Below are positions 11,295 through 28,678 of a stretch of DNA of 64,000 nt, one piece after another. Within the stretch, counting starts at the first letter, position 1. Each line of letters begins with the position of its first letter. Source of the stretch: a virus (lineage: Duplodnaviria > Caudoviricetes); IMG/VR virus record IMGVR_UViG_3300027754_000035; one strand, given 5' to 3'. Under the pieces are notes generated by a model. The model did no database searches, had not been told where the DNA came from, and saw nothing but the letters and a program-made list of their open reading frames with translations. The translations under genes were made by a program, and so were the position numbers.

Positions 11295-11372
11295 ATGACA
11301 CCAGTTTGTGTACAACATATTAAGCGTGAATGGTATAATACAACCTTTGATAAAAGAAAGGTTGGCGGCTGA
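11295..11372 (+). CDS. leader peptide 1 (MTPVCVQHIKREWYNTTFDKRKVGG)
   Basis: 25-codon ORF whose 3' end overlaps the antiterminator segment; codons match array-1 tRNAs. Confidence 0.8.
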   Translation: MTPVCVQHIKREWYNTTFDKRKVGG

Positions 11373-11440
11373 TATTTTGTATACATAACTAATAAAAAAA
11401 CAATATCAACCGTCACCCAGAAATGAGTGACGGTTTTTTG
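11341..11440 (+). promoter_or_regulatory. transcription attenuator upstream of tRNA array 1
   Basis: 1:2 hairpin caaccttt/aaaggttg (11341-64); 2:3 antiterminator 11360-75 with 11403-18 (14/16 pairs); 3:4 terminator aaccgtcac/gtgacggtt plus U-tract. Confidence 0.8.
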
Positions 11441-11469
11441 TTTGAAAATGTTGGTAAAAAAATGATGTT

Positions 11470-11580
11470 GACAGTTACAGAAAGGGTGCTAAAGTAATAA
11501 CAGTTGCGAGACAAAGCGCAGCAAAGAAAAACGAAAAGAAAAAAAAGACAGTTGACAGCGATAAAAAGTGTGATAGACTG
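11470..11580 (+). promoter_or_regulatory. tandem sigma70 promoters ahead of array 1
   Basis: TTGACA-16-TAAAGT near 11470 and TTGACA-16-TAGACT near 11553. Confidence 0.6.
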
Positions 11581-11602
11581 TTAGAACAATTTAAGAAACG
11601 AA

Positions 11603-11735
11603 GGCTTGAAACTCCATCTGTTGAGCCTCCGCCAGTGAGTTGGGAAACCAACAATAAGGTAAAGTCTGGAAAAATCAATTGATTGGTCAACGGGTGTTAT
11701 GCTGCAATACAGAACCCGTATGGCGATGAAATTGC
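11603..11735 (+). ncRNA. putative structured ncRNA, copy 1 (homolog at 24875-24975)
   Basis: Shares an identical 26-mer (gggtgttatgctgcaatacagaaccc) and a conserved-loop hairpin with copy 2. Confidence 0.65.
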
Positions 11736-11770
11736 GATTAAGATCGTTATTTTCTTTATATGTATATGAT

Positions 11771-12379
11771 ATGGGTATACTACATGAATTAGGAACAAAA
11801 TATAATACGGATAAAGCTTGGTGTCACAGATACATGGATTTTTACGAACAATTTTTTGCGCCGATTAAAAATGATGTTAAAAAAATTATTGAAATCGGTG
11901 TACAATGTGGCGGAAGCATACAAACATGGTTAGAATATTTTCCAAATGCAACCGTGTATGGAATTGATTGTGCGCCTCGACCAGAAGTTTTGCAACATGA
12001 ACGTTTTGTTTTCATTACAAAAGACGCTTTGAAAGAAGACGTTTATGGTATGTTTTCTGATGGAGACATTGATATCGTAATTGACGATGGTAGTCATTAC
12101 ATGTCGCAGCAACAAGATGCAATAAAATATTATTGGTCAAAAATAAAACCCAATGGTTATTTTGTAATGGAAGATTTACACACATCATTTGCGGGTGAAT
12201 CACACAATCCACAATATATTGATAGATTACCAACAACATACGATTTTCTCGCAAACAATCTTGATTCGCAAGATGTCGAATTGAACGCAATTCGAAAACA
12301 ATTTTATGAACGACACCACTACAACCGTGATGGTGGATTGCATATCAATGCAAGTCTTACGTGTGTGATCAAAAAGTAA
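11771..12379 (+). CDS. class I SAM-dependent methyltransferase
   Basis: LGTKYNTDK.W.H.Y..FY, IIEIGVQCGGS..TW..YFPNA.VYGID, IVIDDGSH, YFVMEDL. Confidence 0.88.
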   Translation: MGILHELGTKYNTDKAWCHRYMDFYEQFFAPIKNDVKKIIEIGVQCGGSIQTWLEYFPNATVYGIDCAPRPEVLQHERFVFITKDALKEDVYGMFSDGDIDIVIDDGSHYMSQQQDAIKYYWSKIKPNGYFVMEDLHTSFAGESHNPQYIDRLPTTYDFLANNLDSQDVELNAIRKQFYERHHYNRDGGLHINASLTCVIKK

Positions 12380-12390
12380 TATATAATTTT

Positions 12391-12466
12391 GCCACCTTAG
12401 CTCAGTTGGTAGAGCATCAGTTTTGTAAACTGAGGGTCGTCGGTTCAACCCCGACAGGTGGCTCCA
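12391..12466 (+). tRNA. tRNA-Thr(UGU)
   Basis: Full cloverleaf, loop TT-TGT-AA, CCA end. Confidence 0.95.
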
Positions 12467-12474
12467 GTTTTAAT

Positions 12475-12550
12475 GTTGGATATCCTCTATGTAGTAAGAG
12501 CATTGCCTGTGAAGCAATCAAAGGGAGTGCAAATCTCCTTATCCACCCCA
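12475..12550 (+). tRNA. tRNA-His(GUG)
   Basis: ATTGC CT-GTG-AA GCAAT; C73; T-loop TGCAAAT. Confidence 0.85.
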
Positions 12551-12558
12551 AATTTAAT

Positions 12559-12637
12559 GGCCTTATCGTCTACGAATGAAATAGGATTCTGGATTCTCAA
12601 TCCGGAGAACTCGGTTCAACTCCGAGTGAGGCTACCA
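12559..12637 (+). tRNA. tRNA-Glu(CUC)
   Basis: CTGGA TT-CTC-AA TCCGG; GGCCTTA/TGAGGCT acceptor; CCA. Confidence 0.85.
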
Positions 12638-12646
12638 ATTTACAAT

Positions 12647-12721
12647 GGTCTATTCGAACATCAGCTAGTTCGCTAGTTTTTCAAACTGGAAAAGTGGGGG
12701 CAGCACCCACATAGACTACCA
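12647..12721 (+). tRNA. tRNA-Glu(UUC)
   Basis: CTAGT TT-TTC-AA ACTGG; atypical T-loop GGCAGCA; CCA. Confidence 0.85.
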
Positions 12722-12726
12722 TTTAC

Positions 12727-12802
12727 GGTCCGGTGGTGAAACTGAATATCACACAACATTACGAACGTTGAATTTAGGGTTTAACTCCCTACTGGACCAC
12801 CA
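12727..12802 (+). tRNA. tRNA-Arg(ACG)
   Basis: CAACA TT-ACG-AA CGTTG; GGTCCGG/CTGGACC; CCA. Confidence 0.85.
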
Positions 12803-12901
12803 ATTTAGTTGTCAGATGCAAAATTCTGAGTTCCGTTATATTCAACTACCGAGAACAGGCATCAGGAGCGATCATGCTCTGCCAACTAATTAATTTATGA
12901 T

Positions 12902-12977
12902 ATCCGCCCATGTTCCAAGGCAGGCGACAGAGACTCCAAATCTCAGTGGGAAAGTTCGATTCTTTCGGCGGATGCCA
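12902..12977 (+). tRNA. tRNA-Trp(CCA)
   Basis: GAGA CT-CCA-AA TCTC; ATCCGCC/GGCGGAT; G73 CCA. Confidence 0.85.
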
Positions 12978-12988
12978 ATTTAACAAAT

Positions 12989-13064
12989 GCACATGTAACT
13001 CAGTTGGTAGAGTGCGAGTTTTCCAAACTTGCTGTCGTGAGTTCGAATCTCACCATGTGCTCCA
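12989..13064 (+). tRNA. tRNA-Gly(UCC)
   Basis: Canonical cloverleaf, TT-TCC-AA, U73 CCA. Confidence 0.95.
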
Positions 13065-13190
13065 ATTTCCACTAATATAAATGAGATAAATAAAAAACGG
13101 CATGGTCTCATGTAATGGGTTCGATTCCCAACCCGCTGATGAAAATCAGAAGTGTAAGCCTGTATTATGTGAAGTGGAATCAATTTTTAT

Positions 13191-13267
13191 GGGATTGTAA
13201 GAGAATGGCTTCATCGCTTATCCTGTCACGATAAGAAAGTCGGGTTCAAATCCCACCAGTCCCGCCA
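13191..13267 (+). tRNA. tRNA-Asp(GUC)
   Basis: TTATC CT-GTC-AC GATAA; G73 CCA. Confidence 0.85.
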
Positions 13268-13558
13268 TTTTTCAAATACATTAGGTGAAGGCAACGAACG
13301 TAGTTTAATTGGTAAAACAACCGCACGAATAAGCGGTGATCATTCAGTTCGAGTCTGAATCAACAGTTGAAGTAGTAAGTAATGTATTGACACTGATAGA
13401 CATTGAATGTTATAATCTGACGAGATTATGATTAGTAAGTGGAACAACGTGAAATCCAGTAAACACTTTTGAAAGAGAGTCGGTTGAAGTCCGAACGGAA
13501 GTGCAACGCACCCTAAGTAGTGGTAAGAGAATCCACGCTTTCAAATCAATTTTTTAAT

Positions 13559-13632
13559 TCCCGAGTAGTGTCAAAGTAGCACGGAACGCTGTTAACGTTC
13601 TTGTGAGGGTGCGAGTCCTTCCTTGGGAGCCA
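13559..13632 (+). tRNA. tRNA-Asn(GUU)
   Basis: GAACG CT-GTT-AA CGTTC; G73 CCA. Confidence 0.9.
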
Positions 13633-13640
13633 ATTTCAAT

Positions 13641-13715
13641 TCCTATCTAGCACAACGGTAGTGCGTCAAACTGTTAATTTGATGGTTCTTGGTTCAAATC
13701 CAAGGGTAGGAGCCA
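13641..13715 (+). tRNA. tRNA-Asn(GUU)
   Basis: TCAAA CT-GTT-AA TTTGA; G73 CCA. Confidence 0.93.
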
Positions 13716-13724
13716 ATTTTTAAT

Positions 13725-13813
13725 GGTAGTGTATCCAAACTGGTGAAGGAGATCGACTGTAAATCGATTGCCATGTGCTAAACTTGTAGGTTCAAATCCT
13801 ATCGCTACCACCA
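13725..13813 (+). tRNA. tRNA-Tyr(GUA)
   Basis: ATCGA CT-GTA-AA TCGAT; long variable arm; CCA. Confidence 0.9.
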
Positions 13814-13894
13814 AATTTCGTGTAATAACGAACAGATAGGTTAAACCGCTAAACTTCTAGAAAGCTAAAGTTTTATCTATCTGACAATTTTAAT

Positions 13895-13979
13895 GGGAGT
13901 ATCGCATAGCGGCAATTGCAAGACGCTGTAAACGTCTCGGTTCACGCCTTCGTAGGTTCGAGTCCTACTGCTCCCACCA
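13895..13979 (+). tRNA. tRNA-Tyr(GUA)
   Basis: AGACG CT-GTA-AA CGTCT; long variable arm; CCA. Confidence 0.93.
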
Positions 13980-13985
13980 TTTTAA

Positions 13986-14093
13986 TCTGTGTGTAGTTCA
14001 GTAGTAGATCAAAGCACTGCTATGATGGTAAATGACACCGCAAAAGGGCAGAAGAAGCTTAGGCCGTTGGTGCAAATCCAACCACACAGATCA
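13986..14093 (+). ncRNA. tRNA-like RNA with expanded anticodon arm
   Basis: TCTGTGTG/CACACAGA acceptor, D-arm and T-arm GTTGG-TGCAAAT-CCAAC are intact; the central arm is about 45 nt. Confidence 0.6.
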
Positions 14094-14205
14094 ATTTATA
14101 CATTTGGAAATAATATGCAACAAAATATATTGAAAAGGTTGCATGGTGTAAGGTAACATACTCAATCCTATTGTTTGAGAGATTATTAACCACATAATGT
14201 AGTTT

Positions 14206-14277
14206 TTGACAGATGACGTGGTAAAGACCCCGATTCATCATCGGGGTCGGAAAGGTTCAACTCCTTTAATCTGTCAA
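14206..14277 (+). ncRNA. minimal tRNA-like RNA (reduced D-arm)
   Basis: TTGACAGAT/ATCTGTCAA closing stem, GACCCCGA/TCGGGGTC arm, T-arm AAAGG-TTCAACT-CCTTT; no CCA. Confidence 0.5.
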
Positions 14278-14289
14278 TTTATTTTTAAT

Positions 14290-14365
14290 CCGGATTAAGC
14301 TAACTTAGTAGAAGCGTCTGTTTGAAGAGCAGAATGAGTCAGAGCGTAACTGACAATCCGGGCCA
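14290..14365 (+). tRNA. tRNA-Phe(GAA), atypical
   Basis: CCGGATT/AATCCGG acceptor, TCTGT TT-GAA-GA GCAGA, T-loop AGCGTAA, G73 CCA. Confidence 0.65.
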
Positions 14366-14470
14366 ATTTTAGTAGTAATCGCACTTGGTATCGCCCAAGT
14401 TTAACATGGATGAATCGGAGTATATCTATGGATCTGTGGTGTCACGGAGCGGTGAATGATTTAGAAACAT

Positions 14471-14872
14471 ATGATTATAAATACAGTTCCAACGGTACCA
14501 AAACTTATTGCCGCAATAGCAAATTGTTTGCATCCAAAATTGTTGAAACCCGAGTATCGGCAAACAAATGCAAATAATCCTATGTATGGACATTGTTATG
14601 TTGCTACCGAGGCGTTGTATTGTTTGATGAATAAATTTTCATTGACTGATACGTTCAAGCCATTTCAAGCAAAAGATGAAAACAACGTGAGTCATTGGTG
14701 GTTGCAAAGTCAAGACGGAGTGATCATTGACATAACAGCATCGCAATATACGAGTGTTGGTAAAACGCCGCCATACAGCAATGGCAAGTCAAGATCTTTC
14801 ATGTATCCGTCACCATCAAAAAGAAGCAGAAACGTGATGGAAGCGGTTCTGAAAAAAGTTGTTGACCTATGA
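14471..14872 (+). CDS. hypothetical protein with possible Cys-His-Asp (papain/transglutaminase-like) triad
   Basis: GHCYVATEA...SHWWL...IIDITASQY. Confidence 0.75.
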   Translation: MIINTVPTVPKLIAAIANCLHPKLLKPEYRQTNANNPMYGHCYVATEALYCLMNKFSLTDTFKPFQAKDENNVSHWWLQSQDGVIIDITASQYTSVGKTPPYSNGKSRSFMYPSPSKRSRNVMEAVLKKVVDL

Positions 14873-14928
14873 CGAATGTGTGGTAAGATGTTTATAGTTC
14901 GTTGACAACAGCAGATACAATTTTTAAT

Positions 14929-15006
14929 GGATGTGTAACTCAACTGGATTAGAGTATTCGGTTCTTACCCGAAAGGTTGTGGGTTCAAATCCCACCACAT
15001 CCACCA
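14929..15006 (+). tRNA. tRNA-Lys(CUU)
   Basis: TTCGG TT-CTT-AC CCGAA; CCA. Confidence 0.92.
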
Positions 15007-15013
15007 ATTTAAT

Positions 15014-15089
15014 GGGTAACTGACCCCATAAGTGACTGCCGACCGGTACATTCGGTAAAACACAGTGACAGCTTGGAAAGACAGCACCA
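15014..15089 (+). ncRNA. CCA-terminated non-cloverleaf RNA
   Basis: Has tRNA-style spacers and ends GCACCA, but lacks a canonical T/D arm. Confidence 0.45.
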
Positions 15090-15096
15090 ATTTAAT

Positions 15097-15171
15097 GGGA
15101 TTCAAGCTTTAATGGTGAAGCAACTGGCTTTTAACCAGTGGAACACGGATCGTTACCGTGGAGTCCTACCA
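15097..15171 (+). tRNA. tRNA-Lys(UUU)
   Basis: ACTGG CT-TTT-AA CCAGT; T-loop ATCGTTA; CCA. Confidence 0.85.
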
Positions 15172-15362
15172 ATTTAGTTATTTGACAAAGCTAGTCAAGA
15201 AGGTTTGTATTGGGTCGCCCCTGATACTTTTTCCTTGAAGATAGATACGAATGTAGTTTAAGAGAAGAACGCCCGCCGTAGAAAGCGGGAGATTTAAGGT
15301 GCGACTCCTTAACGAATGTAGAACACATTTTATCGTGAAATCCTTTCAAAAATCCAATTTAT

Positions 15363-15441
15363 GGGGGTATGGTGTAACTGGTTAACATCGCACACTGTCA
15401 CTGTGCAGACTTGCTCGGTTCAAATCCGGCTACCCTCGCCA
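15363..15441 (+). tRNA. tRNA-Asp(GUC)
   Basis: GCACA CT-GTC-AC TGTGC; G73 CCA. Confidence 0.88.
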
Positions 15442-15448
15442 TTTCAAT

Positions 15449-15522
15449 TGTCTCTTAGCTTAAGAGTAAAGCCCACAACTGATAATTGTGTGACGACGGA
15501 GCGTTACCGTCAGAGACAACCA
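15449..15522 (+). tRNA. tRNA-Ile(GAU)
   Basis: CACAA CT-GAT-AA TTGTG; T-loop AGCGTTA; CCA. Confidence 0.85.
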
Positions 15523-15718
15523 ATTTTTTGAGATAGCTGATAAGGTCTGAAAAACATGATAAGTAAGACACAAACTGAATAGTAACAAAGATCATCTTTA
15601 GATTTACAAAGGCTTAGTAAATCGATATTATGTGAGTGAAATTTGAGGAAAGCAACTAAGCAACAAGTTTCTGATTACATAGGATCTGTGTATGAAGGAT
15701 TTTTCAAAATATTTTAAT

Positions 15719-15795
15719 GCATCCGTAGCTCAAATGGATAGAGCTTCCGGTTTCTACCCGGACGGCTGTAGGTTCAATTCCTACCGGATGCACCA
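15719..15795 (+). tRNA. tRNA-Arg(UCU)
   Basis: TCCGG TT-TCT-AC CCGGA; CCA. Confidence 0.95.
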
Positions 15796-15799
15796 TTTT

Positions 15800-15997
15800 T
15801 GATAGAGTAGTGTAATGAAAGCACGTTACAGAGGTTAGCTGTAGCTGGGATGATCCAAATTTATTTGGGTAAATGTAAACGACGACTACGGAATAACCTA
15901 TATTTTAGATGTATTAATTCTCATGATTGTCATGTCGATAAACTCCAGTAAGGTAATAAAACTTGAGGTTTGGGTTTGATTCCCAACTCTATCACTA
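15800..15997 (+). ncRNA. about 200-nt tRNA-mimic with a large internal insertion
   Basis: TGATAGAG/CTCTATCA closing stem, D-arm GTGT-AATGAAA-GCAC at the 5' end, T-arm TTGGG-TTTGATT-CCCAA at the 3' end. Confidence 0.6.
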
Positions 15998-16052
15998 ATT
16001 TATAATTGTATTCTATATATGATTGATATTTATTTGTAACAACCATAACAAT

Positions 16053-16409
16053 ATGAAGAAAAAACTATTTGAGAATATCGGCAACAACACATTCAAACTC
16101 AGAAGCAATCTGAATGAGAGCGTTCTTAAGACAAGAATGACACTCACCAATCCTAAAACTGGTGCTGAGTCGGATGTTGATCTTACGGTAACATACACCG
16201 CTACTAAATCATCCCGTGGGGAACGTGAACGTGGTACAGGTCTTCAGTTGTCGCCTGATGATGAAGGGTCAATTGAAATTGAAAGCGTAAAAGATTCAAC
16301 TGGTCAAGACGTTGTTCTGTCAGACTCTGAATTAGAACAACTAAAGGCCGACATCGACGAGCGTTTGTCAGATGCTCACAATGATTACGATGAACCAGAT
16401 AATCTGTGA
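16053..16409 (+). CDS. hypothetical protein
   Basis: ORF preceded by a TATTTAT motif; acidic C-terminus. Confidence 0.75.
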   Translation: MKKKLFENIGNNTFKLRSNLNESVLKTRMTLTNPKTGAESDVDLTVTYTATKSSRGERERGTGLQLSPDDEGSIEIESVKDSTGQDVVLSDSELEQLKADIDERLSDAHNDYDEPDNL

Positions 16410-16538
16410 AGTAATTTCACATTTTTGACGATATGTATAAGAGTGTTTGGTGTTAACCGCACTTTTTATCGTTTCGTGTGTGTGAGTAGTTGATGAAGGA
16501 GAACGAATTGACAAATCAACTAGCACCAAACACATTTT

Positions 16539-16615
16539 GCTCACATAGCTAAATTGGAGACAGCACTTCGGTCCTAACGAAGCGATTGAAGGTTCAAATC
16601 CCTCTGTGAGCACCA
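16539..16615 (+). tRNA. tRNA-Arg(CCU)
   Basis: CTTCG GT-CCT-AA CGAAG; CCA. Confidence 0.88.
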
Positions 16616-16672
16616 CTTTTGTATTGACGTTTTATAGGAACGTAGCAAGATGACTACAGTTCTTTTATTAAT

Positions 16673-16749
16673 GGGCGTGTAACTCAACTGGATAGAGTGC
16701 GAGTCTTCGAAACTCGAAGTTGCAGGTTCAAATCCTGCCATGCCCACCA
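16673..16749 (+). tRNA. tRNA-Arg(UCG)
   Basis: CGAGT CT-TCG-AA ACTCG; CCA. Confidence 0.95.
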
Positions 16750-16907
16750 CTTTTTGAACACAAGGCGAATATTTGTCGCTAAGACGACTGGAAAACGTAT
16801 CCAGCTAACTGCCGAGTGAAGTATCCACGGTGCGACTCTGAATCGCAACTGGCTCTGAGAATTGATACTATGTTGGTATAAATAATCCAACTGTGTTCAA
16901 AATAATT

Positions 16908-16984
16908 GCCTTATTAGTATAAGTAGTTTATTATGCAAGTTCGGTAAACTTGAGAATCCAGTGCAAGTCTGGAATAAGGCTCCA
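16908..16984 (+). tRNA. tRNA-Thr(GGU)
   Basis: CAAGT TC-GGT-AA ACTTG; GCCTTAT/ATAAGGC; T-loop TGCAAGT; CCA. Confidence 0.8.
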
Positions 16985-17005
16985 CTTTTACATATTTATT
17001 ACTAT

Positions 17006-17476
17006 ATGATACTATTAAAAGATTTGTTGAATGAAGCACAACCCGAGTTGACTGTATACAGAGGTGTTAATCCCACATACGGTGATATAGGGTTGGGTAT
17101 AAACAGCACCAAGATTGGTGACAAGTTAGTGGCTACACTGGGACCAAATCATACAAACAATATAGAAGTTGCAAAAAAATTTGGTAAACAAATAACAACT
17201 ACTAAGTTAAAAGGGCCTGGATTAGAATTGTCGCATTACAATGATATAATTAAGTTGTATAAACAGTATGAAAACATGTTGCCCGTTGGTCTTGCTGGTA
17301 AAATTAAAAATAGTAATGGACAAGCTCAATTAGATTTAATACAATTAGCTGGTAAAGATCTGCGCAATATATTGAGTAAGAGATATGGATACATCAAAAG
17401 TCCTCTTGCAATTAGTGATGCTAGTTATTTGAGTGAAAAAGGTCTGACTGGTGATCTGTATATTCCATTGAAATAA
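17006..17476 (+). CDS. putative ADP-ribosyltransferase-fold protein
   Basis: TVYRGV and HTNNIEVAKKF motifs; MILLKDLLNE N-terminus; late motif upstream. Confidence 0.6.
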   Translation: MILLKDLLNEAQPELTVYRGVNPTYGDIGLGINSTKIGDKLVATLGPNHTNNIEVAKKFGKQITTTKLKGPGLELSHYNDIIKLYKQYENMLPVGLAGKIKNSNGQAQLDLIQLAGKDLRNILSKRYGYIKSPLAISDASYLSEKGLTGDLYIPLK

Positions 17477-17497
17477 TTTTTGTTGAGATTCAATTTT

Positions 17498-17572
17498 GCC
17501 TCCTAAACATAGATAGCGATGTGTTAGTTTCGTAAACTAAAGAGGACAGTGCAAGTCTGTCATGAGGCTCCA
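17498..17572 (+). tRNA. tRNA-Thr(CGU)
   Basis: TTAGT TT-CGT-AA ACTAA; CCA. Confidence 0.85.
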
Positions 17573-17580
17573 ATTTTAAT

Positions 17581-17655
17581 TGACACTTAGCGTAATAGAA
17601 ACGCAATCGGCTCTGACCCGAAAGATTGTAGGTGCAAGTCCTACAGTGTCAGCCA
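17581..17655 (+). tRNA. tRNA-Gln(CUG)
   Basis: ATCGG CT-CTG-AC CCGA; TGACACT/AGTGTCA; G73 CCA. Confidence 0.88.
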
Positions 17656-17662
17656 ATTTTAT

Positions 17663-17746
17663 GCATCGTTAGCCAAATGGGAAGGTTGCGGTCTGCAAAA
17701 CCGTAGTGGCAACACAGAGTTAGTTCGATTCTAACACGATGCTCCA
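17663..17746 (+). tRNA. tRNA-Cys(GCA) with long variable arm
   Basis: GCGGT CT-GCA-AA ACCGT; GTG-GCAA-CAC extra arm; U73 CCA. Confidence 0.88.
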
Positions 17747-24676: not shown

Positions 24677-24736
24677 ATGAAGTACAGTCTACAACCATCA
24701 TCGTTAGCAGTAGCGGGTCAACCTAGTTTGACCTGA
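24677..24736 (+). CDS. leader peptide 2 (MKYSLQPSSLAVAGQPSLT)
   Basis: 19-codon ORF directly before antiterminator/terminator; codons match array-2 tRNAs. Confidence 0.8.
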   Translation: MKYSLQPSSLAVAGQPSLT

Positions 24737-24807
24737 TACCGATGGTTTACTTTTGAATACAAACTCTCAAGCTAACCGTTGGTCTCAAAAAGACCAACGG
24801 TTTTTTG
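24693..24807 (+). promoter_or_regulatory. transcription attenuator upstream of tRNA array 2
   Basis: 1:2 aaccatc(24693-99)/gatggtt(24741-47); 2:3 accgatggtt(24738-47)/aaccgttggt(24774-83); 3:4 12-bp terminator aaccgttggtct/agaccaacggtt plus U-tract. Confidence 0.8.
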
Positions 24808-24834
24808 TTTGAAAAAGTATTTTCAAAAGGCCTG

Positions 24835-24862
24835 TTGACAAACGATGAAGGTGTGGTATATT
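24835..24862 (+). promoter_or_regulatory. sigma70-type promoter ahead of array 2
   Basis: TTGACA-16-TATATT with TG extension. Confidence 0.65.
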
Positions 24863-24874
24863 GATTACATGTTC

Positions 24875-24975
24875 GGGGTTGAAACTCTATCTGGTGTCCC
24901 CAACGAAGGTTAAAACACTTGATCGGTCACTGGGTGTTATGCTGCAATACAGAACCCAACTGGCGATAAATTTGG
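24875..24975 (+). ncRNA. putative structured ncRNA, copy 2 (homolog at 11603-11735)
   Basis: gggg/cccc stem around the same ttgaaactcYatctgKtg loop; identical 26-mer at 24932-24957. Confidence 0.65.
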
Positions 24976-24997
24976 TAATAGATAAATACAATTTAAT

Positions 24998-25073
24998 GGG
25001 CGGGTAGTTTAGCGGCTAAAATATCACATTTACACTGTGACTATCGGGGGTTCGAGTCCCTCCTCGCCTACCA
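24998..25073 (+). tRNA. tRNA-Val(UAC)
   Basis: TCACA TT-TAC-AC TGTGA; CCA. Confidence 0.93.
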
Positions 25074-25102
25074 TTTTTCGATGAATGCAAATTCATCATT
25101 CT

Positions 25103-25173
25103 CGGTCCAAAGTGTTACGGTAGCATACGTGCTTTGGGAGCATGGGGACAGAGTTCGATTCTCTGTGGGCCGA
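25103..25173 (+). tRNA. tRNA-Pro(UGG), CCA not encoded
   Basis: CGTGC TT-TGG-GA GCATG; CGGTCCA/TGGGCCG A. Confidence 0.8.
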
Positions 25174-25200
25174 GGGAATTTTTTTGATTAACAAATCAAT

Positions 25201-25274
25201 CGGTCATAAGTGTTGAAGTAGCATACGTGCTTTGGGAGCATGTGGAGCCGGAGCGTTACCGGCATGGCCGACCA
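25201..25274 (+). tRNA. tRNA-Pro(UGG)
   Basis: Same anticodon arm as the previous Pro; T-loop AGCGTTA; CCA. Confidence 0.85.
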
Positions 25275-25289
25275 TTTTACCAATATTGT

Positions 25290-25976
25290 ATGAGATTGAG
25301 AGACATAAAGAAAAATCTAGAAAGCAACGTAAAAGAACTTGAGTTGATAGTAGCCAAGTCCAAATCGATAACCGATCTAATGCGACATTTTAATTTTCCC
25401 GAAAATGGAAAACAAACCAAGTATTTTTGGGAGTTGATTAAGCGACACAACATTGATACAAATCATTTCTATGATAGTAAAGTGTTGACATCGTGTGGAC
25501 AATGTAGAAAGACGATTAAAGTTCGTCAAAAAATTATCAACAATTCACGATGCAAAAAAGCATTCTGCGGTTCGTCTTGTTCGGCAAAATACAACAACCA
25601 TCATAAAACAAAAGGAACTCGTCGTTCCAAATTGGAAGCATGGTTGGAGAAAGAGTTGAACAAAAAGTATCCTAGTTTAGTGATACATTACAATCGCAAA
25701 GATGCAATAGAAGCAGAACTGGATGTTTACATACATTCGTTGAAGTTGGCGTTTGAGTTGAATGGCATTTTCCATTACCAACCAATCTTTGGTGAAGACA
25801 AGTTAAAAGACGTTCAAAAAAACGATGTTGAAAAGATACAAACATGTGTGGACAATCAAATACAGTTGTGTATAATTGATACATCGTCGCAGAAGCATTT
25901 CAAAGAAAGCAATTCGGCAAAGTATTTGAATATGATGACGAAGATCATTGACAATAGAATTTTAATGGTGACGTAG
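25290..25976 (+). CDS. Vsr/DUF559-like PD-(D/E)xK putative homing endonuclease with zinc-binding module
   Basis: CGQC...FCGSSC; SKLE..L; ELDVYI..LKLAFELNGIFHY; D..K...C; inserted within a tRNA array. Confidence 0.85.
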   Translation: MRLRDIKKNLESNVKELELIVAKSKSITDLMRHFNFPENGKQTKYFWELIKRHNIDTNHFYDSKVLTSCGQCRKTIKVRQKIINNSRCKKAFCGSSCSAKYNNHHKTKGTRRSKLEAWLEKELNKKYPSLVIHYNRKDAIEAELDVYIHSLKLAFELNGIFHYQPIFGEDKLKDVQKNDVEKIQTCVDNQIQLCIIDTSSQKHFKESNSAKYLNMMTKIIDNRILMVT

Positions 25977-26044
25977 ACCAACTGGAAGGAGTCATGAGGT
26001 TGAGAACTTCAGTAGTGCAGGTTCGAATCCTGTCGTCGCTACCA
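25967..26044 (+). tRNA. tRNA-Leu(GAG), short variable loop
   Basis: TGAGG TT-GAG-AA CTTCA; A73 CCA. Confidence 0.85.
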
Positions 26045-26048
26045 AATT

Positions 26049-26132
26049 GGGCATGTGATGTAATAGAAGCCATGCGAGTCTTAGAAGCTCGTCCCGAAAG
26101 GGGTGTAGGTGCAAGTCCTACCATGCCCACCA
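26049..26132 (+). tRNA. tRNA-Leu(UAG)
   Basis: CGAGT CT-TAG-AA GCTCG; CCC-GAAA-GGG variable arm; CCA. Confidence 0.92.
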
Positions 26133-26142
26133 AATTTTTAAT

Positions 26143-26220
26143 GGCTATGTAGTCCAACTGGAAGGAGACGCTACTCTCAGAAAGTAGATAGTGTAGGTTC
26201 GAATCCTATCATAGCTACCA
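26143..26220 (+). tRNA. tRNA-Leu(CAG), short variable loop
   Basis: CTACT CT-CAG-AA AGTAG; CCA. Confidence 0.87.
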
Positions 26221-26228
26221 AATTTAAT

Positions 26229-26306
26229 GGCACCGTAGACCAACTGGAAGGAGTCGTCTCACTCAAAATGAGAATAGTGCAGGTTCGAATCCTGTCGGTG
26301 CTACCA
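26229..26306 (+). tRNA. tRNA-Leu(CAA), short variable loop
   Basis: TCTCA CT-CAA-AA TGAGA; CCA. Confidence 0.87.
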
Positions 26307-26335
26307 AATTTTAGTTGTTCTTTTGAAATTTTAGT

Positions 26336-26420
26336 GGGCATGTGGTGAAATTGGTATACACGTTTCGCTTAAGACGAAATCCCGAAAGGGGTGCTGGTTC
26401 GAGTCCGGCCATGCCTACCA
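26336..26420 (+). tRNA. tRNA-Leu(UAA)
   Basis: TTTCG CT-TAA-GA CGAAA; variable arm; CCA. Confidence 0.93.
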
Positions 26421-26587
26421 CTTTGCTAGTTTAGACGTATTCACGCCACAGTGAACGAGGGGCGAAAACCCTGCTTAGACGCATTCAAACAAATTTGAAT
26501 GGTAAGACGGCTCTAAACGGTAGAAATTTTATTTGTAGTTGACATCAGCAAGTATGCGTGTATACTATGTATAGTTCTTTTTAACAT

Positions 26588-26679
26588 GGAGAGGTGGCTG
26601 AGTCTGGCTTATGGCGACGGTCTTGAAAACCGTAGGGGCCTAAAAACCCCCGGGGGTTCGAATCCCTCTCTCTCCTCCA
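26588..26679 (+). tRNA. tRNA-Ser(UGA)
   Basis: ACGGT CT-TGA-AA ACCGT; long variable arm; CCA. Confidence 0.93.
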
Positions 26680-26961
26680 ATTTAATACAACTCCACTTGA
26701 CAATGGAACCGAAGACTGATAATATCGTCTCTTGAAGAAATCGGAGATTGTCTAAATTTTACCATCTATATATAGATGGTTGCAAAATGATTACCGATAC
26801 TAGTATTCCAGAATGAAGATCATTCCGGTTCGCTTATCAAAAAAAAGTAAGTACTTGATTGTACTGAAAGATAAGAAAGGTGGTACGACCGAAACAGTGC
26901 TATGGTAGCTCTACGAATCAATAGAGCAAGGTCAAAACAAATATCATTTTGTAACTTTAAC

Positions 26962-27054
26962 GGAAGTGACGTAGATAGTTAGTTTTCTACAGCAGTTTGC
27001 TAAACTGCCGTGCCCTAAAAAGCACTGAGGGGGCAGCACCCTTCGCTTCCGCCA
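26962..27054 (+). tRNA. tRNA-Ser(GCU)
   Basis: GCAGT TT-GCT-AA ACTGC; long variable arm; T-loop GGCAGCA; G73 CCA. Confidence 0.85.
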
Positions 27055-27060
27055 TTTTAC

Positions 27061-27136
27061 GGGCCAGTAGCTCATCTGGTAGAGCATCTGCTTTGCACGC
27101 AGAATGTGGCAGGTTCGAGTCCTGTCTGGTCCACCA
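27061..27136 (+). tRNA. tRNA-Ala(UGC)
   Basis: G3:U70; TCTGC TT-TGC-AC GCAGA; CCA. Confidence 0.95.
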
Positions 27137-27142
27137 ATTTAT

Positions 27143-27216
27143 GCGGGTATGATGTAGTGGTAGCCTTCGACCTTGCCAAGGTTGATGTGAGGGTTCGATT
27201 CCCTCTACCCGCTCCA
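27143..27216 (+). tRNA. tRNA-Gly(GCC)
   Basis: CGACC TT-GCC-AA GGTTG; U73 CCA. Confidence 0.93.
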
Positions 27217-27223
27217 ATTTAAT

Positions 27224-27297
27224 TGCCCGATAGTGTAATGGTAGCACAAGAGACTTTGACTCTCTTTGTATTGGTTCAAATCCAGTTCGGGCAACCA
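27224..27297 (+). tRNA. tRNA-Gln(UUG)
   Basis: AGAGA CT-TTG-AC TCTCT; CCA. Confidence 0.93.
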
Positions 27298-27849: not shown

Positions 27850-27877
27850 TTGACAAACAATAAAATTGTGGTAGACT
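27850..27877 (+). promoter_or_regulatory. sigma70-type promoter (near-leaderless)
   Basis: TTGACA-16-TAGACT; ATG 6 nt downstream. Confidence 0.7.
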
Positions 27878-28246: not shown

Positions 28247-28634
28247 GGGCGTGTACTGGTTTCGATTTGAGTATACGTTCATTGTATGCACGCAGAAGAT
28301 GATGGTTGGCTTCTCTAAAGACCCATTAAAACATTAACCGCTGAGGAAAATGTAGTGAGCTACGACTTCTCTTACGAGAACGTCGGCGCAGTTGCAGCCT
28401 AATATTGGTTGCCCGTTTGTTCGGTGAGAGTTCGGTAATCGAAACAAATGTCATTTACGGACTAGAACTGAAAACAGTGATTTGTGGTTTCAGTTGACAT
28501 CTTACAAATCTTAAGAACAACATTTTTTGACAATATTAGATTGTTGTTCCTAACAAATTCAAAATTGTAAAAGCGTGTAGAGTGCGATGATACAATAGTC
28601 AAAGACGAGGGTTCAACTCCCTCCACGTCCACCA
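28247..28634 (+). ncRNA. ssrA: tmRNA
   Basis: GGGCGTG...CACGTCC-ACCA acceptor with G3:U70; 5' ctggtttcgat; 3' T-arm gagggttcaactccctc; tag reading frame 28340-28402 AEENVVSYDFSYENVGAVAA*. Confidence 0.92.
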
Positions 28635-28640
28635 ATTATG

Positions 28641-28678
28641 AGCCACGACATTACTTAAAAATGATGTCGTGGCTTTTT
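28641..28678 (+). terminator. intrinsic terminator after tmRNA
   Basis: agccacgacat/atgtcgtggct plus T run. Confidence 0.85.

Follow-up and report, generated by a model that had tools for sequence, protein, structure and literature searches.

A conserved, covariation-supported RNA element next to the tRNA arrays of uncultured lake phages

We find that a 64,000-nt stretch of DNA from an uncultured large tailed phage (the whole stretch is here called the window) carries two diverged copies of an RNA element that almost certainly represents a genuine structured RNA family. In the usual case the element sits between a promoter and the first tRNA gene of an array, has a fold supported by covariation, and is conserved. 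The way in which its sequence varies indicates that it acts as RNA of the + strand and is non-coding. Large phages carry dozens of tRNA genes, and the transcription and handling of their long untranslated arrays are little known. Here, a clade of uncultured lake phages keeps a covariation-supported RNA domain, in two diverged copies, before such arrays. At about 100 nt the element is easily synthesised, and it offers an object for asking whether phages use RNA to control stable-RNA operons.

The window contains a baseplate-wedge gene and tail-fibre genes, and at the protein level its only cultured relatives are Xanthomonas and Stenotrophomonas jumbo phages with ~40% identity. The DNA runs that contain the element region are freshwater and lake metagenomes. 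Two arrays, 12391-17746 and 24998-27297, together hold 31 tRNA genes, and a tmRNA gene lies at 28247-28634. The tmRNA scores 122.8 bits in Rfam, has the tag peptide AEENVVSYDFSYENVGAVAA, is flanked by an apparent TG-extended promoter-like site of its own (27850-27877) and a strong terminator (28640-28675), and is covered at a depth of 123 by a contig of one lake RNA run. The Rfam tRNA model also marks three extra tRNA-like stretches that have no ARAGORN call (12559-12634, 13987-14090, and 15247-15320), the second of which, at 104 nt, may hold an insertion or intron. Directly 3' of tRNA-Pro (25102-25174) there is a second, Pro-like tRNA 5' half (25195-25275) whose 3' half appears disrupted and which runs into the beginning of ORF 25227-25976 (249 aa, without a Pfam match); this copy may be a degenerate tRNA or the target of a mobile gene.

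A sequence-only reading of the window had reported one shared structured RNA, present in two copies on the + strand, and both the alignment of the copies and a covariance model bear this out (Table 1). With filters off, the covariance model gives at most 10.6 bits anywhere else in the window, and only the two copies stand out. They align end to end, except for a block of ~30 nt found only in copy 1. The 26-mer that the reading described as identical in both copies is exact and occurs exactly twice, at 11692-11717 and 24932-24957 (0 expected in 100 shuffles). The block TTGAAACTCYATCTGKTG also has two occurrences in the window, and its closing stem does change from GGCT/AGCC in copy 1 to GGGG/CCCC in copy 2, as had been noticed. 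The extra GTTGG-GAAA-CCAAC hairpin described for copy 1 is present as well, inside a larger hairpin (P2) that also encloses a conserved AAGGTAAAG stretch. Other parts of the early description needed amendment. Copy 1 was correctly located, but extends past position 11735, where it had been ended, because there is an extra conserved hairpin, P5. Similarly, the closing stem and extra hairpin had been seen while P5 and the P4/P3 pairing were missed, and the P1-loop block and the block ending in CAMTTGATYG had both been listed without the pseudoknot pairing that joins them.

Table 1. Coordinates of the two copies of the element, their parts, and their promoters in the window
Feature	Position	Strand	Details
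Copy 1 (type A)	11602-11753	+	covariance model, 122 bits
Copy 1 promoter	11552-11579	+	TTGACA, 16 nt, TAGACT; TG before second hexamer
Second promoter-like site, copy 1	11468-11495	+	
Copy 1 P1 hairpin	11602-11628	+	strands 11602-11606 / 11624-11628
Copy 1 P1 loop		+	invariant L1 11607-11613, then pseudoknot 5' strand 11614-11623
Copy 1 P2 hairpin (type A only)	11632-11669	+	11632-11636 with 11665-11669
Copy 1 P2a, variable, inside P2	11639-11643 / GAAA loop / 11648-11652	+	
Copy 1 pseudoknot 3' strand	11675-11685	+	partner of 11614-11624
Copy 1 3' domain	11686-11724	+	contains 26-mer; variable apical loop
Copy 1 P4	11686-11689 with 11721-11724	+	
Copy 1 P3	11691-11695 with 11714-11718	+	
Copy 1 P3b	11698-11701 with 11710-11713	+	
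Copy 1 invariant tail GAU	11725-11727	+	
Copy 1 P5 hairpin (type A only)	11728-11753	+	UAAG loop
Copy 2 (type B)	24875-24967	+	covariance model, 95 bits
Copy 2 promoter	24835-24862	+	TTGACA, 16 nt, TATATT, TG-extended; 11/12 matches
Copy 2 P1	24875-24901	+	24875-24878 with 24898-24901
Copy 2 P1 loop		+	L1 24880-24886, pseudoknot 5' strand 24887-24897
Copy 2 A-rich linker, short	24902-24914	+	no P2
Copy 2 pseudoknot 3' strand	24915-24925	+	
Copy 2 3' domain	24926-24967	+	GAU tail at end
Copy 2 P4	24926-24929 with 24961-24964	+	
Copy 2 P3	24931-24935 with 24954-24958	+	
Copy 2 P3b	24938-24941 with 24950-24953	+	

To derive the fold we used RNAalifold and manual inspection, which agree, and scored the result on 82 distinct sequences. 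From 5' to 3' it consists of P1 (4-5 bp), a pseudoknot formed between the 3' half of the P1 loop and the downstream block CAMUUGAUYG, an optional P2, and a 3' hairpin; type A alone adds P5. In the 3' hairpin, which is long and irregular, a 1x2 internal loop separates P4 (4 bp) from P3 (5 bp); beyond P3 come a conserved bulge, an A-G mismatch, and then P3b, capped by a tip that varies. Across the 82 sequences standard pairs occupy 97.7% of cells (87.6% in shuffles) and two-sided changes occur at 14 of the 33 pairs. The covariation score of 0.195, compared with 0.055 in shuffles, is reached by none of 500 shuffles, upholding the covariation that the sequence-only reading had proposed from two copies. 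As a control, sliding the partners by 1-3 columns lowers pairing to 46% or less. The support is spread over several helices. For instance, the P1 pair at columns 6-26 is C-G in 43 sequences, G-C in 24, U-A in 14, and U-G in 1. P2 is known with three unrelated stems (CCAGU/ACUGG, GAGAU/AUCUC, and GGAUU/AAUCC) and has two-sided changes at 4 of its 5 pairs. The helix of the 3' domain is 99.1% paired with two-sided changes at columns 94-126, 96-123, 97-122, and 106-115, and the closing pair of P3 takes the states G-C, G-U, U-A, C-G, A-U, and U-G. Among 45 type A flanks, P5 is conserved, its loop is YGAG or UAAG, and its stems show covariation. The minimum free energies of the single copies are unremarkable (z-scores of -0.98 and +1.30), so energy alone gives the structure no support.

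Of all the helices the pseudoknot has the weakest support. Six of its 9 pairs are invariant, its covariation amounts to few independent events, and the energy of its duplexes is modest. Nevertheless, cognate duplexes are more stable than cross-type ones, the pair at columns 22-83 changes without a single exception (U-A 48, G-C 27, A-U 7), and the pair at columns 25-80 is A-U in 48 sequences and U-A in 34; the A-U state of columns 22-83 was recovered only by the scan that leaves the 5' domain free. The unpaired segments L1, G99/W100, and the GAU tail are invariant in both paralogs, part of this apparent invariance arising by construction since both of the pattern scans that collected the sequences fix some bases; the covarying positions are unconstrained in at least one of the two scans. 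Helices adjoin one another with no intervening nucleotides, and the fold is probably rigid, with P1, the pseudoknot, P4, and P3 stacked coaxially. By eye, the conserved internal loops do not fit K-turn, loop-E, or hammerhead-core readings.

Two features of the variation bear on strand and coding. G-U pairs at columns 21-84 and 92-128 are invariant, which makes the + strand the functional one. The apical loop carries indels of 1 and 2 nt, the linker carries indels that are not multiples of 3, and variation in the stems is compensatory. Such frame-breaking indels exclude a coding reading, and we therefore reject the two ORFs that overlap the element (11699-12379 and 24861-25007) as explanations of its conservation, the variation not being frame-preserving. 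The first of these ORFs encodes a Methyltransf_24 / FtsJ-like protein that resembles phage methyltransferases only from the residue encoded at 11771 onwards, which makes the longer reading frame with its start at 11699 a probable artefact. Its first 24 listed codons overlap the RNA, and relatives have frame-breaking indels there.

A homolog search of the kind that the sequence-only reading had put forward as a check yielded at least 160 instances with 82 distinct sequences, among the matches listed, all from uncultured phages in IMG/VR and metagenome contigs and mostly from lake and freshwater metagenomes; covariation is present among them. Instances were found by one pattern scan for the conserved P1-loop block and an independent second scan for the 3' domain only. 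They fall into two types. Type A is ~150 nt long with a P1 of GGCU or GGUU and the extra P2 and P5, and heads an array that begins with tRNA-Thr. Type B is ~95 nt long with a P1 of GGGG or GGGC and a short A-rich linker, and heads an array that begins with tRNA-Val. Many contigs carry one of each, ~10-13 kb apart, which argues that the duplication is old and that both copies have been kept. The element is phage-specific, and types A and B are old paralogs. Among cultured phages, a blastn search of both regions against 50,697 phage records gave no match. The exact 26-mer is absent from the viral_contigs and genome_contigs sets, because relatives differ in the apical loop. Synteny with the GP88-like neighbour protein is no guide: among 80 loci with this protein (L006-L085) the covariance model finds the element only in L007 and L022. 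In cellular genomes the combined 5' domain pattern has no match, and the 3' domain pattern has 55, of which 53 are chance matches and 2 are true elements. The latter (L312 and L347) are identical ~3-kb phage fragments with the element and tRNAs that ended up in MAGs of Phycisphaerales and Woesearchaeota, presumably by mis-binning, and the cellular matches accordingly hold no clue to the host.

We then compared genomic contexts, counting 90 non-redundant ones and defining a promoter as TTGAC(A/G), N15-19, TAnnnT. A TG-extended sigma70-type promoter ends 11-23 nt 5' of P1 in 83 of the 90, and the element would accordingly start at about +6 to +18 of the transcript. The sigma70 promoters that had been noticed upstream of the two window copies are both TG-extended, and end 22 and 12 nt before P1 (copies 1 and 2, respectively). 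A tRNA follows the element core by 20-55 nt. In type B the interval is a variable AU-rich spacer of 17-31 nt that ends U-rich at the tRNA 5' end (in the window, 30 nt followed by tRNA-Val at 24998), and in type A it is P5 and a spacer followed by tRNA-Thr. The claim that the element heads tRNA operons is true of both arrays in the window, but it is not universal: in the GGGC subgroup the promoter is followed first by tRNA-Val and a conserved 54-aa ORF and only then by the element, which is thus internal, with tRNA-Pro or tRNA-Val next. Copy 1 does lie upstream of its array, as had been said, although the methyltransferase ORF (probable start 11771) comes first and tRNA-Thr follows at 12391. 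The order of element and then methyltransferase is also seen in L125 and L232.

The 54-aa ORF (MENNVDKD...) lies between tRNA genes in L114 (2957-3118), L149 (12317-12478), L004 (8330-8491), and L096 (9142-9303). It is probably a real small protein, and some of the differences between its L114 and L149 copies are, by eye, synonymous. We rejected it as a dedicated partner of the element, since it is present in L004, which has no element, and absent from the window.

Several observations concern how the arrays may be expressed. On the + strand, no strong intrinsic terminator is found inside the arrays of the window, and G is at least as frequent as C, making this strand a poor Rho substrate. Around the two copies, the only terminator-like sites are the strong hairpins at 11408-11435 and 24774-24802, both of which are upstream of the leader promoters; the second, together with the array-2 promoter, is kept in relatives without the element (L004, L114, and L149). 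No element accompanies the strong promoters internal to the arrays (13387-13416, 26539, and 26697), nor the tmRNA promoter (27850). The first of these is a 12/12 match to the sigma70 consensus with TG, inside array 1, and between it and tRNA-Asn at 13559 there are ~140 unannotated nucleotides that might be another, unrelated leader. L004, a more distant relative, keeps homologs of the terminator, the promoter, and tRNA-Val but has no element, from which it follows that an array can be expressed without it. In two lake RNA runs, contigs cover 11316-11753 and 24682-25122, with DNA carry-over possible; these are assemblies that begin upstream of the promoters, and hence no start, end, or expression can be read from them.

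The sequence-only reading had suggested an antitermination leader, a processing leader, or a stable small RNA, and all three stay candidates. Based on position, fold, and conservation, we propose that the element is a leader that acts in cis while nascent. It would be transcribed on the + strand from a strong early-type sigma70 promoter, ahead of any other structured part of the tRNA-array precursor, would fold on leaving the polymerase, and would influence array expression in cis. Most probably it would bind RNA polymerase during elongation, or else a factor that travels with it, and transcription would thereby become resistant to pausing and termination across a long, largely untranslated array, as with putL and putR of phage HK022. 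RNase P cutting at the first tRNA would then free the element as a discrete leader fragment. Because put acts without a tether, this cleavage would not stop such an action. A put-like cis action on array transcription is our best guess and ranks first, although we hold it tentatively and at something short of an even chance. The maintenance of both paralog types side by side in many phages speaks for it, and the invariant unpaired segments (L1, G99/W100, and GAU) look as would be expected of a contact surface. In addition, the DNA of the invariant L1, GAAACT, may be read as a hexamer that weakly resembles a -10 element and lies between about +13 and +23; for comparison, a -10-like hexamer has been proposed to cause a sigma-dependent pause in putL. 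There are real objections. With no strong + strand terminators in the arrays and a poor Rho substrate there is little to antiterminate, and the internal promoters and the tmRNA promoter do without the element, as does the relative L004. We also count against a put-like action the position of the element inside the array in the GGGC subgroup, a fold that differs from the V of put, and the few independent covariation events and modest duplex energy of the pseudoknot. It is conceivable, though on the unlikely side, that the element defines a new factor-independent class of RNA that reprograms host polymerase (by anti-pausing and antitermination) specifically for phage stable-RNA operons, through a pseudoknotted fold unrelated to put, or else a decoy RNA, derived from a tRNA precursor, that takes a host factor out of action in infected cells.

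The main rival to a put-like leader is a stable small RNA that is transcribed from the strongest of the early promoters, is released by RNase P at the first tRNA, and acts in trans as a decoy, sponge, or cofactor that binds a host or phage protein or RNA, with tRNA 3' processing freeing the internal copies. There are precedents in species 1 and 2 of phage T4 and in the 3'ETS-leuZ spacer of an E. coli tRNA precursor. A compact pseudoknotted fold with unpaired segments identical in both paralogs would suit such an RNA, as would the accessory nature of the element, which is absent in L004 and at internal promoters. Copies internal to arrays would be excised on both sides, and the lake metatranscriptome contigs over both copies are weakly in its favor. 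However, an RNA acting in trans need not come first after a promoter, as it does in 83 of 90 contexts, nor always lie directly before a tRNA run and nowhere else in the window. The RNA contigs, which start upstream of the promoters, make no discrete transcript visible. We regard this rival as rather unlikely. Less probable still is that the element serves the precursor itself as a module for processing, folding, or stability, in which a rigid coaxial stack of P1, the pseudoknot, P4, and P3 would shield the end of the transcript, prevent upstream RNA from pairing wrongly with the first tRNA, or serve to attract RNase P, RNase E, or an RNA-repair enzyme of the phage. Its location ~20-55 nt before a tRNA, with an AU-rich unstructured spacer between, is consistent with this, and the abutting helices could stack. 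Yet protection by a 5' hairpin in the classical form described in E. coli sits poorly with the ~5-17 unpaired nt predicted 5' of P1, which is long for that purpose. Moreover, the element is internal in the GGGC subgroup, relatives and internal sub-arrays mature their tRNAs without it, and a passive clamp needs less than such strict conservation of loops.

It is improbable that the element is a riboswitch-like sensor that tunes array expression in response to uncharged tRNA, an ion, or a metabolite. Its attractions are the pseudoknotted conserved core with invariant internal-loop nucleotides, the 5' leader position, and, in type A, P5 directly 3' of the core. Nonetheless, the two types have no expression platform in common (type B has no such hairpin, and P5 is not scored as a terminator), no competing alternative pairing is seen, and neither a riboswitch nor a T-box model matches. 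The least probable of the alternatives is a new self-cleaving ribozyme that trims the precursor. By its strand order of hairpin, loop-to-downstream pseudoknot, and hairpin, the element loosely recalls the pistol ribozyme. It is also small, pseudoknotted, phage-borne, present in multiple copies, and adjoins tRNAs, as theta ribozymes do (PMC10879173). Against self-cleavage, no ribozyme model matches at E<=10 and the strand order is not that of an HDV-like nested double pseudoknot. A spacer that varies from 17 to 31 nt means that cleavage could not define the tRNA end, and the RNA contigs pass unbroken through the element, which weighs weakly in the same direction. Were the released-RNA reading true, tRNA precursors would yield functional by-product RNAs.

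The family is new, but its general kind is familiar: a structured leader or phage non-coding RNA. At the gathering threshold, Rfam 15 finds only tRNA and tmRNA in the window, and at E<=10 it gives nothing for copy 1 and two chance matches (11 and 9 bits) for copy 2, in agreement with the sequence-only reading, which had recognised no known family. Full-text literature searches returned no description of the motif. It is a candidate new Rfam family, for which a seed alignment and covariance model are ready. Individual known classes were also considered. There is no T-box match at E<=10 and no terminator in or after the element, which sets aside a T-box leader, defined by a stem I with specifier loop and an antiterminator/terminator switch. 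Nor does the element fit an intrinsic terminator or attenuator, which would need a GC-rich hairpin and then a U tract: no such site is found within it or immediately 3' of it, and P5 is not scored as a terminator. Neither ARAGORN nor Rfam makes a tRNA or tmRNA call at 11600-11753 or 24873-24970.

Four known systems come closest. The stable RNAs species 1 and 2 of T4 (rnaC and rnaD) are encoded in the T4 tRNA cluster and their function is unknown. Like them, and likened by description only, the element is a small structured RNA co-transcribed with phage tRNAs; a phage with a T4-type baseplate and release by tRNA processing would be further shared features. Unlike the element, species 1 and 2 lie at the promoter-distal end of their cluster. 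The rRNA operon leader (boxB-boxA-boxC, bound by NusB/NusE) secures read-through and aids RNA folding and processing. It resembles the element in lying between a strong promoter and a long untranslated stable-RNA operon. Its boxA, however, is a single-stranded protein site of 8-12 nt (PMC3177189), whereas the element is a large folded domain with no boxA consensus common to types A and B; a boxA-like match in the GGGC subgroup only is, by eye, at chance level and absent from other types. Theta (minimal HDV-like) ribozymes are likewise small, pseudoknotted, and tightly linked to tRNA genes of uncultured tailed phages (PMC10879173). They cleave at the tRNA 3' end and fold as the nested double pseudoknot of HDV (PMC10879173), with helices P1, P1.1, P2, P3, and P4 and the cleaved site at the 5' end of the ribozyme. 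The element, in contrast, lies 5' of the tRNA behind a variable spacer and has a different strand order (P1-5', PK-5', P1-3', optional P2, PK-3', hairpin, with no P3 hairpin inside P1). Given these differences in strand order and position, and no HDV-like match in Rfam, we do not assign the element to the HDV-like or theta ribozymes.

The comparison with putL and putR of HK022 is the one on which our preferred reading draws. These are nascent antiterminator RNAs in two similar copies, downstream of PL and PR, each of ~70 nt with two adjacent stem-loops that form a V shape with a short triplex (PMC9378689). put binds the zinc-binding domain of beta' and suppresses pausing and termination without protein factors. 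Its first copy begins at about +3, and it acts over at least 10 kb without a tether to the polymerase (PMC9378689). The element differs in having a loop-to-downstream pseudoknot and one long 3' hairpin in place of the two-stem V, in showing no sequence similarity, and in heading tRNA arrays where put heads the protein-coding early operons of lambdoid phages. We do not count it as a put RNA, as it departs from the structural definition and its binding of polymerase is hypothetical. The likeness is in the arrangement: the element too is phage-encoded, occurs as two similar copies each downstream of an early sigma70 promoter (the GGGC subgroup excepted), with the first starting within a few nucleotides of the transcript start, and forms a folded domain of ~70-150 nt with conserved unpaired bases. 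If a put-like action is its true role, the element would show that a second, structurally different RNA can achieve put-like control of the polymerase.
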